Positions 27,588-62,719 of a stretch of DNA of 64,000 bases are shown piece after piece (positions within the stretch are counted from its first letter, which is position 1; every line of letters begins with the position of its first letter). The position numbers and the translations under genes were made by a program. Source of the DNA: Bacteroidota bacterium (GTDB lineage Bacteria > Bacteroidota > Ignavibacteria > Kapaibacteriales > HRBIN21); contig JAUQPL010000001.1 in assembly GCA_030550395.1 (NCBI GenBank), forward strand, positions 332,756 to 396,755, read 5' to 3'. The notes beneath the pieces are model-generated. The model worked only from the letters and a program-made list of their open reading frames with translations, was not told the origin of the DNA and ran no database searches.

Positions 27588-28670
27588 ATGTGTCGTCTGA
27601 CGACATACCTGCTTCGCCAGATCGGAGCCGTCTTTGTCTTTACGCTCGTGGCGCTATGTCTGATCTTCGTCATCGTCAACCTGATTGAAAATTTAGACGA
27701 CTTCCTCGATACCGGTACTCCAGCGGCGGTTATCGCTGAGTACTACGTGATTTTCCTGCCAGAGATGCTCAAGTATCTGGCTCCCGTTGCCACGCTTTTG
27801 GCATGCTTGTTCGGTATCGGACGGCTGACACAACGCCACGAGATCACCGCCATGAAAGCCGCTGGGGTAGGTTTGCCCCAGCTTGGGGCCCCTATCTTCG
27901 GAGCAGCAGTGCTATTGAGTTGCGCACAACTACTCCTCAACGGCTGGATCGTACCGCGGGCAACCGAACGCAAGCTGGCCATTGAACGGCGTTACTTACA
28001 ACGCTCACTGCAAAGTCGCATACTGTTCAACATAGCCTTCCGAGATAGCCCGAGCCTCATTGTTCTCCTGCACCGTTACGAACCCGACGAGTACCGGGCA
28101 TACGGGGTAGCAGTAGAGGAGTTTACCGCGGACACCTACTCCCCTCGGTGGAAGCGGCGGATGGAAGCTGAAGAAATGGTATGGGATAGCGCTACCGGAC
28201 GGTGGCACTTGTTTCGGGTCCTCGAGCGAACTTACGGCGATACAGTCCAGACTGTTACTATCGCCGAAACGACATTAGTGCTCCGCCTTACTCATCAGAC
28301 TATTCTCCGCCTCCAGCGTACCCCTGCAGAAATGACCCTGCCGGAGTTGCGGCACTACATTGCTACGCTCTCCACTGGAGGACAGGACGTCCGCCCCCTA
28401 CAGGTCAACTACTACAGCGAGTATGCTCTGCCCTTTGCCCACTTAATCGTAGCTCTGCTTTCCGTTCCCCTGGCAGCTGTCTATCGCCGCGCTGGATTAG
28501 CAGCGCAATTTGGAACAGCCGCCGTACTCGCCTTCACATACATGGTTCTCACCCGTATTAGCCAAACCCTCGGTGCCGTCACCCCTTTCCCACCACCGAT
28601 TGCCGGCTGGCTGACCAATGGCGTGTTCCTCATCGCTGGAGGTGTAATCCTATGGCGGACACGAACGTAA
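27588..28670 (+). CDS. LPS export ABC transporter permease, LptF/LptG family
   Basis: EITAMKAAG motif, 3+3 TM architecture with periplasmic beta domain, AGWL.N. Confidence 0.9.
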   Translation: MCRLTTYLLRQIGAVFVFTLVALCLIFVIVNLIENLDDFLDTGTPAAVIAEYYVIFLPEMLKYLAPVATLLACLFGIGRLTQRHEITAMKAAGVGLPQLGAPIFGAAVLLSCAQLLLNGWIVPRATERKLAIERRYLQRSLQSRILFNIAFRDSPSLIVLLHRYEPDEYRAYGVAVEEFTADTYSPRWKRRMEAEEMVWDSATGRWHLFRVLERTYGDTVQTVTIAETTLVLRLTHQTILRLQRTPAEMTLPELRHYIATLSTGGQDVRPLQVNYYSEYALPFAHLIVALLSVPLAAVYRRAGLAAQFGTAAVLAFTYMVLTRISQTLGAVTPFPPPIAGWLTNGVFLIAGGVILWRTRT

Positions 28671-29425
28671 AGGAGCTGCTCTACGAAAAAGCTCAACAAC
28701 TCTTGAGCCAGCATGGGAGGCTCTACACTCTGCTTGTAACGCTGCGTTGGGCTACTACCGGCGCTGACGATGGGGGGATACCAAGGCAGGGTTGGTGGCG
28801 CGGTGGAATCCGATGGCTGGAGGCAGTGGTTGTGCCTTTCTATATGCCGTGGGCAAGCGGATTTGTCTTCCTGGGTGCTGCCGTGCTGCTGCTCTTACTG
28901 GGCATCCGCCGCTTCACCGGTGTTATTGGCGAGGAACCCATCATCGCTGCCTTCGTTGCCGAAGGCTTTTTCCTGCTCGTGCTCTTCCTGCTTCTCCTCC
29001 TTGCCCCCGGCTCTCCATCATCCACCCGCAGTGACGAACTATCAACCCTTGTCCACGACCTCAACGATATCGCAACGGACATAACCCGCATCGTGGAGAG
29101 CCACGATCAACTCTTGCAGCGTTGGCAGGAAAGTACAGAGTCCCAGTCCATCGCTCTCCAGAGACTCGACCAATTGCTCCAAAAGCTCCAGCAGCTCCCG
29201 TTACCAGGGGCGGCTCTTGTGGCGGAGCTCCAGCAGCTCCAGCAAGCCCTCTCCCAACTGAACGCTACCATACGGCAGACGGTGGACGAACTCCAGCACT
29301 GGCGGAACCAGCAGCTACAGAGCCTGGTCCAACAGGAACTGGCACGAATACTGGCAACCTACGCACGGACAGTCGCTGCCCCTGACTCTGGCTCACCTTC
29401 TGGGGAATCATCCCACCATGCGTAG
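28652..29425 (+). CDS. Two-TM plus cytoplasmic coiled-coil protein, divergent GldL/PorL-like
   Basis: TM1 FLGAAVLLLLLGIR, TM2 with intramembrane Glu (VAEGFFLL), Gln/Leu coiled coil. Confidence 0.55.
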   Translation: MADTNVKELLYEKAQQLLSQHGRLYTLLVTLRWATTGADDGGIPRQGWWRGGIRWLEAVVVPFYMPWASGFVFLGAAVLLLLLGIRRFTGVIGEEPIIAAFVAEGFFLLVLFLLLLLAPGSPSSTRSDELSTLVHDLNDIATDITRIVESHDQLLQRWQESTESQSIALQRLDQLLQKLQQLPLPGAALVAELQQLQQALSQLNATIRQTVDELQHWRNQQLQSLVQQELARILATYARTVAAPDSGSPSGESSHHA

Positions 29426-30824
29426 CCCTGTGCCTCACCAAGGGGAGCTCCTCTTCGTACTTGCTCTGCTGCTGCTCCTCTTTGCCCTCCTGGATATGCC
29501 CCTTTCAGAATCCCCGCGCTCATCGCCACGCTTGGTGGGGTCCACAACCACACCAGCGGTGGAATTCTCTCTGAGCCGCTTTGAGCTTCAGTGCATCATA
29601 GAGGACAGCCTCGGCAAGCGCCGATTGGTAAAGCATGATTCGCTCCTTGTGCTGTCATATTCTCGCCCTTTGGAACATCTCTCCATCCGTGTGACGGTGG
29701 ATTCTGCGGGGCATTTAGTGTGGCACTCTACTCACCCGGAGGCAGCTCGACCGATCAGAATAAAGCCGTATGGAGAACAACGGCGCGTAGAACTCGTATG
29801 GCACTTCCCCTGGCAGAAGCCTATACTACCCCCTGGGGAACATGTCTACTGGCTTCGCATCCGAGCCTCGTATGCCACAGAACAGGGCACCCAAACCGAG
29901 CAATTAACAGCGCGACTCCGTGTGCTCGTCGTCACTGCAGCTCCCCTCCCCGCCTCCCCCTCTCCTGTAATGGGATCGGTATCTCCCCAACCGCTCAGTC
30001 TTGTGCCAATAATCCCGCTCATCGAGGTCCCGCCTCACGCCCTCTGGGAAAATGAAGTTGTGGTCTACGGCCTGAATCTGGCAACGGACTTAGCTTCTGC
30101 ACCGCAGATTTCTATTAGCGGAGCACCCAACGGTAATGCTACCACCCGGGTGGATCCGAAGCTGAATCGCTTACTTCTCAGCGGAAAGGCTCCTTCAGAA
30201 GGGGAAATGCAGGTATCCATAACTTTGGCTCGCCGCAGTGACGGGGAACGCGCCACTGCTTACTTTTCCATCGTCGCACATCCCCTTCCCTCTCCCCATG
30301 TCCCCAAGGAAATGTATCCCGAACGGACGTACACTCTGCAGCCCAATCTCCAACTCCAGGGGCAAATCGCAAGGGCAGAACTCTACGACAATCGGCAGCA
30401 TCTACTTCGACGCTCCTCTCCTGGCACACCGTTTACTTTCACCCCCGAACTCTCCGACACTGGTACGACACTTTTATTCCGTCGCTTCGTCAATGAGCAG
30501 CTTCTCGACGAGACCCCTATCCTCATCCGTGACTATCCGCCTCCGGAAATCCTGAACACCTCTCGCGAGAAGGAAGGGCTAAAAGTCCGCACTCGCTGCT
30601 TCGGGACTGTAGAAGGTAGGCCGAATCAATGCCAACTAACCGTATATGGTCCCGGGAAAGCCCGAGAACTATACGGGGACAAAAGATACTACACCAAGGA
30701 GCCGTACGGAACCACGGTTGAGCAAGTCTTTCTGGTGGAAGGCCCCGACTTGAGTAGAGTCGAACTACTCATCCGCGACCGTGCCGGACGCCAAACCCAG
30801 TGGAGCCAGAAGGCGCCTCGTTAA
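29418..30824 (+). CDS. Single N-terminal TM protein with long beta-rich periplasmic region, divergent GldM-like
   Basis: Overlaps the GldL-like gene by 8 nt; TM LLFVLALLLLLFALL followed by Ig-like beta segments. Confidence 0.45.
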   Translation: MRSPVPHQGELLFVLALLLLLFALLDMPLSESPRSSPRLVGSTTTPAVEFSLSRFELQCIIEDSLGKRRLVKHDSLLVLSYSRPLEHLSIRVTVDSAGHLVWHSTHPEAARPIRIKPYGEQRRVELVWHFPWQKPILPPGEHVYWLRIRASYATEQGTQTEQLTARLRVLVVTAAPLPASPSPVMGSVSPQPLSLVPIIPLIEVPPHALWENEVVVYGLNLATDLASAPQISISGAPNGNATTRVDPKLNRLLLSGKAPSEGEMQVSITLARRSDGERATAYFSIVAHPLPSPHVPKEMYPERTYTLQPNLQLQGQIARAELYDNRQHLLRRSSPGTPFTFTPELSDTGTTLLFRRFVNEQLLDETPILIRDYPPPEILNTSREKEGLKVRTRCFGTVEGRPNQCQLTVYGPGKARELYGDKRYYTKEPYGTTVEQVFLVEGPDLSRVELLIRDRAGRQTQWSQKAPR

Positions 30825-34009: not shown

Positions 34010-36481
34010 TTATCGGACAAGCCTGACAGGGATCCCCCACCGCCCTTGAGCTGAGGTCAAGTACAGAAGGTAAACCCCATCTGCAAGCCCAGCCGGCAGC
34101 GGTACTCGCACCAGGTGCTCGCCCTCAGACACCTGTTCCCACCGAAGCTCTTGGACTACCTGTCCCAGCAAGGTCATCAGCCGTAGTTGCACCTGGAATA
34201 GTGGTTCGGGTAGCTGCACCCGCAGCCAAAGCCCGTTGCCTTGATCGGAGAAAGGCTGGATCCGGACTGTGGACTGCACGGGGAAGAACTCCACAGAGAT
34301 AGGAGGTTCGATGACGAACGGGGCTGCACTCTGCACACTCTGGTCCATATTGGCAAGGTTGCGCAGACGGACCAATGCCTGCTCTGTGGGTGTATTGGGA
34401 ACCGTCCATTCATACTGCATCACTGTTGCGTCCTGCGTCGCTCGGATCGTCCTCCAGCTTTGCCCACCATCTGTAGAGTACTCAATCCGGATACGGCTTA
34501 CGAAATCCGACTGCCAGCGGATCCACTGCTTCGTTCCCGCCGCCCAGCGCTCACCCCCATTTGGTACCAACAAGGATAGCTGGGGGATCCCAATGGCAAA
34601 GAACGGGCTTTGGTCTGCTACCGTTGGATCGGCCGTGTCCTCAATTCGGATTACTGCCCGATCTGTCTGCACCATCGGGACGGTCCATACATAGGAACGT
34701 CCCGAGGTTGCCGGCACCAAGGTGTCCCAGCTTGCTCCTCCATTGGAACTGAACAGAAGGCGGACAACCGAGACCAATGTGGCTGACCATTCAATATTGA
34801 CCTGCTCCCTCTGTCCATAGCGTTCTCCGCCGACAGGACGGGATAGACGCAGCTCAGGTATCTGGATAGCAAAGCTTGCCAGCGTAGTATCCCCAACGGC
34901 AGGGTCTGCCGTATTGTAAATCCGGAGCCATACAACTGGAATGTTGGCTCGGGGCAATTCCCAGCGGTAGCTCCGCTGGGTTGCCGCAATACCGGTAGCA
35001 ATACGTTCCCACGTCCGCATGCTATCGGTCGAATACTCCAGCGTAACATTCTGCACCTGAGCCGAAGTCCAGCGAATCTCCAGCTGTGAACCGCCTCGGA
35101 ACGACTGCTTCCCAACCGGGTGCTGCAACAAAAGCAATGGTGTTGATGGCTGGGCTAAACATGCCTCTGCCCGACTATTCCGGAGCACTACAGCAACTCG
35201 CTGACGGAAGGTCAAAGCAACAGAGGGCTGAACCAAATGGCAGTAGCTCATAATGCTACCACCATCCCACGATGGACGGGGGATGATCGGGGACCGATAA
35301 CAGGCATCCGGAGTGGGATAGGGATTGCCATCCTGCGTCACACATGTATCCAGCGGTGGGCTCCAATAGCAAGCATGGGTATGCGGGGCTCCGAATACAT
35401 GTCCGATTTCATGAGCCACTACGTGCACGTCCCACGTATAGCCCAGCGTTGGATACGCGTAAGTACCTCGGATACCACTGACGCTATAAGCGCTGCCTGG
35501 AGAACAGAGGGTATTCAGCCGTGCGATACCCCCGACCATAGTGCCACCAGGAGCTGTCATCACGTGTACCAAATCCCGCTCCACACTGCGACGGTGTTGG
35601 TTCCAATACGCAGACACCTCGCCTAAAAGCGCTCCGATGTCGTTATCGTTCTGGTACGGGTCCTCCTCGCCATCGGGCGGTTCCATCCAGATGAGAATCC
35701 AGGGCAGGAGGAAAGTCACATTAAGCTCGTCCTCGTAGATACGAGCGACCATGGCAAACAGAGAGGCAATGTAGGCCGCCACTCGGTCATAGTCCCGATT
35801 GAGCCGCACATAGAGCGAAGAAGTGGCTTCTACAGCCACTCGCGCTTGCCGCAATGTCGTAAAGTGTGGTATCGGCTGGGTCGGCTCTTTTATCATGCGG
35901 AGTTGTTCCCAGTAGTCACTCATCTGCTCAATAGCACAGAGCCATTGGGACAGTTGGCTCTGTGTAGTCAATTCCCCCAGCACGTGCTCCCGTTCGTTGC
36001 CCCAGCGCTGTCCGCTGGGGACGAATTCCCAAAGGCGTCCGTTTCTCCGGCGGATGAATCCATAGAGCTCCCCGCCAACCACGCTCAGAGTAACTTGCGA
36101 GCCCGGCTCGCCGAGGATATGTCCGTGGAACACGTACTGTGTAATCCCCTGCATCGGCTCCAGCTGTTCCGGCTGTCCATCCCGTGCTGGGCGAACACCC
36201 CGCCACCACTGCGTCTGCGCATCCACCACCGACCGCGCCCGCCGCAGGTGCACAGTTGCCTCCTCCCCATATCCGACGGGGAAATCGCTCAGCCTTAACT
36301 CCGCCTGCGGAAGCATCGCCACCGCCTGCAAAACCAGCCCCCGCACCCAATACCCTCCCACTGGCTGCACCTGCAACAGATTTTCCGCCGGCCGCAGGAA
36401 CAGCCGTGCCGATATGTGCTCCTGCGCTATTCCCACAATGCTACCGAGCACCACTCCAAGTCCGAAGAACACCCAACGCAT
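34010..36481 (-). CDS. Secreted M12/reprolysin-like zinc metallopeptidase with three Ig-like repeats and a T9SS type A C-terminal domain
   Basis: Signal peptide; HEIGHVFGAPH with Met-turn SIMSY; C-terminal L..LLGQ.V...LADGVYLL. Confidence 0.88.
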   Translation of the reverse strand: MRWVFFGLGVVLGSIVGIAQEHISARLFLRPAENLLQVQPVGGYWVRGLVLQAVAMLPQAELRLSDFPVGYGEEATVHLRRARSVVDAQTQWWRGVRPARDGQPEQLEPMQGITQYVFHGHILGEPGSQVTLSVVGGELYGFIRRRNGRLWEFVPSGQRWGNEREHVLGELTTQSQLSQWLCAIEQMSDYWEQLRMIKEPTQPIPHFTTLRQARVAVEATSSLYVRLNRDYDRVAAYIASLFAMVARIYEDELNVTFLLPWILIWMEPPDGEEDPYQNDNDIGALLGEVSAYWNQHRRSVERDLVHVMTAPGGTMVGGIARLNTLCSPGSAYSVSGIRGTYAYPTLGYTWDVHVVAHEIGHVFGAPHTHACYWSPPLDTCVTQDGNPYPTPDACYRSPIIPRPSWDGGSIMSYCHLVQPSVALTFRQRVAVVLRNSRAEACLAQPSTPLLLLQHPVGKQSFRGGSQLEIRWTSAQVQNVTLEYSTDSMRTWERIATGIAATQRSYRWELPRANIPVVWLRIYNTADPAVGDTTLASFAIQIPELRLSRPVGGERYGQREQVNIEWSATLVSVVRLLFSSNGGASWDTLVPATSGRSYVWTVPMVQTDRAVIRIEDTADPTVADQSPFFAIGIPQLSLLVPNGGERWAAGTKQWIRWQSDFVSRIRIEYSTDGGQSWRTIRATQDATVMQYEWTVPNTPTEQALVRLRNLANMDQSVQSAAPFVIEPPISVEFFPVQSTVRIQPFSDQGNGLWLRVQLPEPLFQVQLRLMTLLGQVVQELRWEQVSEGEHLVRVPLPAGLADGVYLLYLTSAQGRWGIPVRLVR
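34290..35140 (-). repeat. Three tandem ~90-aa Ig-like protein repeats
   Basis: Repeated L..P.GG.......I.W......V.L.YS..GG.SW..I......Y.W.VP; boundaries approximate. Confidence 0.75.
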
Positions 36482-36518
36482 CGCCAAACTTCCACAGAGC
36501 TTTTGAAACTTCAAGCCA

Positions 36519-36526
36519 CAAAAATA
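36519..36526 (-). promoter_or_regulatory. -7 promoter element (TATTTTTG) upstream of the M12 peptidase gene
   Basis: Exact TAnnTTTG on the minus strand in the divergent gap. Confidence 0.45.
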
Positions 36527-36622
36527 CAAACCCCTCTGCCTCCGACTCCAATAGCATCTGCTCTCAGCCCACAAAATTGGCCCCCTGAGCGTCTATTACT
36601 GCCCACGGGAAGCTCGGCCGTT

Positions 36623-62356: not shown

Positions 62357-62719
62357 ATGCAGCACTTCCTGCTAGCCATCGTCAGCGTTGTATTTTTGGT
62401 ACTCTCCACCCCTGAGCTTCTCGGCCACGATGGATGTGGGAGCCACCGCCGCTCTTCTTCCTCCAATGCACTCCATGCCCCGAAGGGTTCCCACACCGGG
62501 GAGCTCACTGCAAAGCACGCACTGGTATCCCACAGCTCTGACATCGCCACCTCTTCGCAGGCTCAGGAAGAACACACCTGCTGTGAGGAAGAGGAAGACG
62601 AAACCGAGGAACATGGCTGCTGCCGAAACCATGCAAAGGCCGAGGGGTTGGAGAAAGGATGCTGCGCAGGGAAAAAGGGAGACAAGAGTGAACATTCGGC
62701 TCCGACACCGCAACGATAA
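62357..62719 (+). CDS. Small exported His/Cys/acidic-rich protein
   Basis: Signal-peptide-like N-terminus; three CC pairs, acidic tract, many His. Confidence 0.55.
   Translation: MQHFLLAIVSVVFLVLSTPELLGHDGCGSHRRSSSSNALHAPKGSHTGELTAKHALVSHSSDIATSSQAQEEHTCCEEEEDETEEHGCCRNHAKAEGLEKGCCAGKKGDKSEHSAPTPQR

Follow-up and report, generated by a model that had tools for sequence, protein, structure and literature searches.

Does the pair of overlapping genes that follows lptG in a genome of the Kapabacteria order encode an ion-driven motor of the GldL/GldM kind, and if so, what would such a motor drive? The pair, open reading frames (ORFs) ORF1 and ORF2, lies in a 64-kb stretch of DNA (64,000 nucleotides, hereafter the window; contig 14:332756-396755, GenBank contig JAUQPL010000001.1) from a Bacteroidota bacterium whose assembly (GCA_030550395.1; 1.94 Mb) is 99.3% complete, and at least seven further studies' metagenomes (hot-spring, plus one sediment-labelled run) contain this stretch, with at least half of its sampled words present. 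To our knowledge, the GldLM/PorLM motor is regarded as a universal core component in type IX secretion (the T9SS). In our full-text literature searches, no listed paper dealt with divergent GldL/GldM, or with the T9SS of Kapabacteria or Ignavibacteria. We tentatively read ORF1-ORF2 as a second, clade-specific GldLM-like ion-driven pair, confined to the Kapabacteria order and one further family, and give this reading slightly less than an even chance of being correct. The elements of the locus, in window coordinates, are as follows.

28652..29425, + strand: ORF1, 257 residues, the "L-like" protein, with an N-terminal cytoplasmic two-helix domain, a transmembrane (TM) hairpin and a C-terminal coiled coil (sequence, alignment and AlphaFold2, AF2)
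28793..29005, + strand: TM hairpin of ORF1, residues 48-118, comprising a pre-TM helix and TM1 (F73/G75-A76-A77, R86-R87), a short loop and TM2 (AF2, conserved columns)
28961..28963, + strand: GAA codon of ORF1 Glu104, the sole charged residue inside TM2 (GCCGAAGGC), aligned by hhalign to GldL Glu49
29021..29377, + strand: cytoplasmic coiled-coil region of ORF1, residues 124-242 (AF2 helices 124-180 and 187-242)
29418..30824, + strand: ORF2, 468 residues, the "M-like" protein, bitopic with its N terminus inside and a periplasmic array of four immunoglobulin (Ig)-like domains (sequence, AF2)
29439..29492, + strand: TM helix of ORF2, residues 8-25, ELLFVLALLLLLF, a degenerate version of the motif that the family shares, R-x-x-E-I-Y-F-V-L-Y-L-A (AF2, alignment)
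29565..30812, + strand: four predicted beta-sandwich domains of ORF2, residues ~50-173, 194-287, 300-370 and 377-465 (AF2)
27588..28670, + strand: lptG, a lipopolysaccharide (LPS) export permease (PF03739, E 2.1e-77)
28639..28645, + strand: GGAGGTG, a Shine-Dalgarno-like element within the 3' end of lptG, 6 nt 5' of the ORF1 ATG (read from the sequence)

The anatomy of both proteins is as the initial annotation had described it. In the AF2 model of ORF1 (mean predicted local distance difference test score, pLDDT, 83.9), the N-terminal two-helix domain (residues 2-36) is followed by the hairpin (helices 48-89 and 94-117) and the two long helices, and sequence and model agree on the hairpin, the lone Glu of TM2 and the long coiled coil; the extended N terminus is equally real, with ~60 extra residues that form a conserved domain. 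Both ends of the hairpin are probably cytoplasmic. In an alignment of 30 ORF1 orthologues, G47, G51, V72, G75, A76, E104 and L108 are invariant (30/30), and conservation is at least 90% for W55, Y73, A77, R87 and P119. The overlapping, beta-rich partner with a single TM segment is ORF2, for which the AF2 model (pLDDT 83.5) gives one TM helix (residues 8-25) and ~440 periplasmic residues folded as beta-sandwiches, none of the domains past the TM helix being helical. The ORF2 family (25 members) has a consensus that begins RRxVEIYFVLYLAAL, and basic residues followed by YF.LY are found in 23 of the 25.

The three genes are tightly packed. lptG overlaps ORF1 by 19 nt at its 3' end, and the position of the GGAGGTG element suggests that translation of ORF1 is coupled to that of lptG, whose product scores 206.9 bits against the LptG model TIGR04408, under the cut-off of 240. 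ORF1 and ORF2, probably coupled in translation as well, in turn overlap by 8 nt (ATGCGTAG), and the next gene 3' of ORF2, murD, is on the opposite strand; a scan with promoter and terminator consensus patterns gave low-specificity matches only and no convincing terminator between lptG, ORF1 and ORF2. We searched 41 related genomes (11 families, 22 genera) for ORF1 and fetched 32 loci from among them for neighborhood counts. ORF2 is directly 3' of ORF1, with frames overlapping or abutting, in 29 of the 32, so that the gene pairing on which the initial annotation had staked its claim is largely kept; the other three carry ORF1 without an adjacent ORF2. lptG is directly 5' of ORF1 in 20 loci, 2.6 kb away in one and outside the fetched stretch in 11, the genes 5' of ORF1 in these 11 being heterogeneous. 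The proposed linkage to lptG is thus frequent, and not obligate.

Searching the genome with the ORF1 profile retrieves a second L-like protein, P454, and the helix motif of the ORF2 family recurs in P730, the second GldM-like ORF (YFVLYL) of the initial annotation.

Contig 14:417298-418662 (L078:6302-7663), outside the window, - strand: P454, a 454-residue membrane protein with four helices
62747..64000 of the window, + strand: 5' part of P730, which runs beyond the window; it has a TM helix (KVYFVLYLAVVLELLLIIVERDEAEE) with the ORF2-family consensus and heads a P730-P602-P463-VWA/OmpA gene cluster (L058:603-7268)

ORF1 and P454 bring the number of L-like proteins in the genome to two. The C-terminal hairpin of P454 (AYGGAALLIIAIGIRGLKF...FLEFSML) aligns with the ORF1 family over 79 columns (hhalign probability 98.1%, E 6.8e-14), and members of the P454 family, like remote relatives, also retain the intramembrane Glu; P454 differs from ORF1 by an insert of 130 residues and by two additional helices at its N terminus. 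An ORF of 1,800 to 1,900 residues is found 3' of P454-like genes in eight of the nine loci seen, and its counterpart in the source genome (~1,900 residues) has a Peptidase_C25 domain and a sub-threshold match to a secretion tail. One relative (G012) has the order lptG-ORF1-ORF2-P454-giant C25 protein, which we count as a link between ORF1-ORF2 and the T9SS. A conserved aminotransferase-like gene in divergent orientation also adjoins P454.

P730, 730 residues at full length in the genome, is found in 40 of the 41 relatives at 31 to 87% identity, and its N terminus hardly varies within the order over the first ~37 residues (GKVYFVLYLAV.LELL.IIVERDEAEE, whose helix contains a Glu). Aligned by hhalign, the helices of the ORF2 and P730 families score 32.1 (probability 93.6%), against a maximum of 12.3 in 60 shuffles; the two proteins share the YFVLYLA helix motif, whereas their periplasmic remainders are unrelated. 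P730 has no match to GldM. Of 13 loci, 10 have the P730-P602-P463-VWA/OmpA cluster in full. Two of its products, P602 and P463, are distantly paralogous to each other, carry signal peptides and outer-membrane-like ends and belong to no Pfam or NCBIfam family; in the Atlas, P463 has unnamed FCB-group clusters as neighbors, and the closest clusters that bear a name, under the 0.9 mark, are outer-membrane-protein-like families. L-like genes and genes for the YF helix recur side by side: a P454-like gene is directly 5' of a P730-like paralogue in two loci (L095, L097), three genomes that belong to other orders have short L-like genes (173-260 residues) directly 5' of a YF-helix gene, and at one of these loci (L099) P602-like and P463-like genes come next. 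Just 5' of P730 itself (window 62357-62719, + strand) there is a gene for a 120-residue secreted protein rich in His, Cys and Glu, and some relatives (L093, L094) have small Cys/Ser-rich secreted ORFs at the same position.

The two sets differ in how widely they are distributed. Of 101 genomes of the class, 44 have the P730 family (E ≤1e-5), and 21 have the ORF2 family at full length, namely all 11 of the own order and all 10 of one further family (f16); one more has an N-terminal-only ORF2 match. Full-length ORF1 matches in a phylum sample of 151 genomes are limited to the own order and a single member of that further family (G088). On the basis of these class-wide and clade-limited distributions, the module of an L-like protein, an M-like protein and two outer-membrane proteins looks like the older, class-wide arrangement and ORF1-ORF2 like a younger, clade-restricted duplicate. 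The ORF1 family is small and unannotated, its hairpin hidden Markov model (HMM) matching 195 of 1.84 billion representative proteins at E ≤0.001. ORFs of ~340 residues that ORF1 matches weakly in relatives were judged unrelated, since their topology and context differ; among proteins of this length, those in loci L052-L057 have one N-terminal helix (e.g., G009 contig 1:1919407-1920423), with a P-loop/ATPase-like gene of ~670-690 residues 3' in three of the six (L053, L055, L057), seemingly a conserved pair of another kind.

To place ORF1 and ORF2 relative to the known motor proteins, we built GldL and GldM profiles from nine canonical gldK-L-M loci in genomes of the phylum. The ORF1 family aligns with the nine GldL sequences at an hhalign probability of 90.5% (E 1.3e-6, score 51.3), with GAA on GAA and Glu104 on the F. 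johnsoniae residue Glu49; reversed GldL scores 28.8, and 100 column shuffles reach at most 25.9. When only the hairpins are compared, the Kapabacteria family gives 57.6% (score 31.4), with GAA, Glu and Pro in the same register, and a profile of the 156-sequence superfamily gives 28.9% (score 27.2), the controls being 12.7 for the reversed profile and at most 19.2 for 60 shuffles.

Several results weigh against a GldL/GldM identity. TM helices are a recognized cause of inflated profile-profile scores. The GldL model TIGR03513 (cut-off 68.3 bits) matches neither ORF1 at E ≤1 nor anything else in the genome; the search itself works, since 19 of 81 phylum genomes are found over the cut-off, but none of the 19 genomes in that sample that belong to the class of the source genome. 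Of 12,792 ORFs in the genome, a GldL hairpin HMM ranks ORF1 526th and P454 139th, and a full-length GldL HMM ranks ORF1 34th; in the other direction, the ORF1 hairpin HMM matches GldL in none of five GldL-bearing genomes, and an NCBIfam scan recognizes as GldL (TIGR03513) none of the 93 remote ORF1 relatives among the matches listed. The P454 family reaches an hhalign probability of just 0.15% with GldL, despite its clear kinship with ORF1. HMM searches of Pfam, NCBIfam and the PDB with ORF1 return coiled-coil noise only; for the whole family such noise tops the PDB search, with GldL (7sax_C) at E 0.023, and the trimmed hairpin profile has no match in the PDB. ORF2 fares no better: it has no Pfam family at E ≤1 and no NCBIfam family, its hhalign probability against the GldM profile is 1.7%, and its family helix scores 10.9 against the GldM helix, short of the 15.0 that the best shuffle reaches. 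In the AF2 model of ORF2 the first periplasmic domain is a beta-sandwich and not helical. Finally, fold searches yield generic helices or Ig domains only. Foldseek with the ORF1 model has no match at E ≤0.001, the ESM Atlas returns for residues 40-135 non-specific helical matches and no usable named one, and Foldseek and VIA-align with the ORF2 model find generic tandem Ig folds (titin, cadherins, S-layer, antibodies), with no PorM/GldM chain among the 50 matches listed in either search.

With hhalign positive and the HMM and fold searches negative, we regard homology of the ORF1 hairpin to GldL as an evenly balanced question; membership of ORF2 in the GldM family is not supported by its sequence, and the likeness of the pair to the GldL/GldM motor is weak. 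Of the GldL/GldM-like identity first proposed, what stands is the hairpin of ORF1, aligned in the GldL register above its controls; what fails is support from HMMs, in both directions, and a profile similarity of ORF2 to GldM.

The likeness is easiest to see feature by feature. Like GldL/PorL, ORF1 has hairpin ends that are predicted to be cytoplasmic, a GAA in TM1 preceded by an aromatic residue, a basic residue at the TM1 end, a single conserved Glu in TM2 with an Ala-rich stretch after it, then Phe/x/Pro and acidic residues past TM2, a helical cytoplasmic C-terminal region, and a gene directly 5' of that of a bitopic partner. It differs in a TM2 that continues 4-6 residues longer past the Glu, in a C-terminal domain that cannot be aligned, in the extra N-terminal domain, in the lack of an HMM match, and in a gene position after lptG, with neither gldK nor gldN nearby, rather than in a gldK-L-M-N operon. 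ORF2 resembles GldM/PorM in an N-terminal helix after basic residues, a conserved Tyr (at the level of the ORF2 family), a long periplasmic part that ends in Ig-like domains and a similar length. Where GldM reportedly has a helical first periplasmic domain, D1, followed by three Ig-like domains, ORF2 has a beta-sandwich; it also lacks profile similarity, and the ORF2 of the source genome lacks both the Arg and the Tyr (compare GldM Arg9 and Tyr17). A preprint proposes that GldL Glu49 and GldM Arg9 form a functional salt bridge (bioRxiv 10.1101/2022.01.28.478170). The broader plan, a multicopy membrane subunit with a bitopic subunit that spans the periplasm, is that of the 5:2 ion-driven motors MotAB, ExbBD and TolQR, from which the present pair differs in carrying the acidic residue in the ring-type subunit and not in the bitopic one, as in the GldLM arrangement. 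PF01618 (MotA/ExbB/TolQ) has no match to ORF1 at E ≤1.

The negative searches also bear on a reading in which no motor is involved. ORF1 would then be a membrane-anchored coiled-coil scaffold or signaling protein and ORF2 a periplasmic spacer of Ig domains or an envelope protein resembling adhesins, such as a structural element that spans the envelope or an accessory of LPS or outer-membrane assembly, and the resemblance to GldL would be convergence or chance among TM helices rich in small residues. We take this to be a real, if lesser, possibility: HMM, PDB and fold searches link neither protein to GldL, GldM or any stator family, the hairpin-only probabilities are modest (29-58%), and adjacency to lptG in 20 of 32 loci would suit a role in envelope biogenesis. 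A passive anchor is, however, hard to square with a mid-membrane Glu that all 30 of the 30 orthologues retain, as do the P454 family and remote relatives. The near-invariant helix motif common to two otherwise unrelated periplasmic proteins, ORF2 and P730, points instead to a specific helix-helix machine, and the alignment in the GldL register brings four distinct motif elements into match and outscores every control.

The pair also has a peculiarity in the source genome. Y73F and A105G in ORF1 are found only here and in a sister genome (G003), the other 28 ORF1 sequences retaining Tyr and Ala, and it is in the same two genomes that the ORF2 helix has lost its basic residues and both tyrosines, which the other 23 ORF2 sequences retain. 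The absence of the partner-helix Tyr, which the initial annotation had pointed out, is therefore true of the source ORF2 and is no trait of the family, being confined to these two genomes. The ORF1 changes and the loss in the ORF2 helix count as one evolutionary event, and a correlated change of this kind would fit either contact between these positions or relaxed constraint. Because the ORF2 helix has lost its Arg and Tyr, and because ORF1 and ORF2 are each 53% identical to their G003 orthologues compared with 87% for P730, constraint on ORF1-ORF2 may have relaxed in the source genome, a point against the favored reading.

Does the genome hold the machinery that a GldLM-like motor would serve? 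It encodes SprA, PorV (two matches) and three C25-type (PorU-like) proteins, one of them beside PorV, and there are 27 matches to secretion tails, 19 of them over the cut-off. The gene for SprA/Sov, the type IX translocon (contig 14:328484-329812, - strand, within a 2,265-residue ORF, L013), is located ~3 kb ahead of the start of the window, which puts it ~30 kb from ORF1-ORF2 and ~65 kb from P730. SprA_N is found in 100 of the 101 class genomes. Across the whole genome there is no match to GldN (PF19841), GldM_1st (PF12081) or GldL (TIGR03513), and no GldK over its cut-off of 350 bits, so that no canonical gldK or gldN was found, in line with what had been noticed at the locus. The one FGE-sulfatase lipoprotein of the genome (contig 11:141262-143933) was rejected as GldK, as it reaches 86.8 bits against the 350 required and has unrelated neighbors; a lipoprotein with a Cys-x-x-Cys-His heme motif adjoins it. 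The window also contains an 854-residue ORF (34010-36574, - strand) with a zinc-protease-like motif (HEIGHVFGAPH), repeated beta-rich modules and a C terminus with the look of a secretion tail, which is not among the TIGR04183 matches.

Returning to the reading that we favor, ORF1 and ORF2 would together form a stator-type complex in the inner membrane, driven by ions and akin to GldL/GldM, with each contributing one of its two subunits, and would be a lineage-specific paralogue of the older L-like/M-like module found widely across the class. Several ORF1 hairpins may encircle the ORF2 helices, proton flow through Glu104 would move these helices, and the rigid Ig-like array would relay the movement across the periplasm to a target in the outer membrane or the periplasm. 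One candidate target is the type IX secretion and attachment machinery, because SprA, PorV, PorU and many cargo tails are present; another is a step coupled to LPS delivery, because linkage to lptG is frequent. As the main motor of the T9SS, we rate the P454/P730 set, which comes with two outer-membrane-like genes, as the more likely of the two. The "second, specialised motor" of the initial annotation fits the distribution of a lineage-restricted paralogue; no canonical first motor was found in this genome or in the sampled genomes of the same class, and "second" hence means the second of two non-canonical sets.

It might be argued that ORF1-ORF2 is instead this lineage's genuine, though strongly diverged, orthologue of GldL/GldM, driving the T9SS via SprA, and that P454/P730 serve some other purpose. 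It is the ORF1 family, and not P454, that gives an hhalign signal to GldL; ORF2 is near GldM in size and combines a single helix with Ig-like domains, as GldM is said to do; and SprA, PorV, PorU-like proteins and 27 tail matches are present in a genome in which the canonical gldKLMN was not found. The linkage to lptG would also be sensible if cargo were attached to anionic LPS as in Porphyromonas, where such attachment is described (PMC8545088). We nevertheless think this quite improbable. The ORF2 family is found in 21 of 101 class genomes and SprA in 100, so most T9SS-bearing relatives would be left without a motor; the operon of L-like, YF-helix, P602 and P463 genes is more widespread and looks older; and ORF1 and ORF2 evolve fast, with a helix motif in ORF2 that is degenerate in the source genome. 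Finally, that ORF1 and ORF2 are not real genes is ruled out by conservation, an ORF1 homologue being found in 41 of 41 related genomes.

A more far-reaching proposal extends the favored reading to the class as a whole. The entire class might run its T9SS without recognizable GldK, GldL, GldM or GldN, by means of an unannotated set of an L-like protein, an M-like protein with the YFVLYLA helix and two outer-membrane-type proteins; the Kapabacteria order would have duplicated and rewired this module into two stators (ORF1 and P454) and two rotors (ORF2 and P730), with one copy hard-wired to lptG and possibly powering the attachment of cargo to LPS. As ORF2 and P730 have one helix "plug" in common, stators and rotors could then swap partners. 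We consider this scenario, taken as a whole, unlikely.

That SprA is found in 100 of 101 class genomes, compared with a recognizable GldL in none of the 19 tested, raises the question of what powers secretion in this class, and ORF1-ORF2 and P454/P730 are concrete candidate motors, defined at the level of sequence. If they are true motors, the indispensable part of the GldLM design would be a hairpin with GAA and Glu together with a tyrosine-rich central helix, and the K/N ring and the periplasmic shaft would be exchangeable; the two sets would also represent a natural case of motor duplication with a common rotor helix. Furthermore, the pair has recurrently become joined to the lptG operon, a hint that LPS export and the surface attachment of secreted proteins may be linked.

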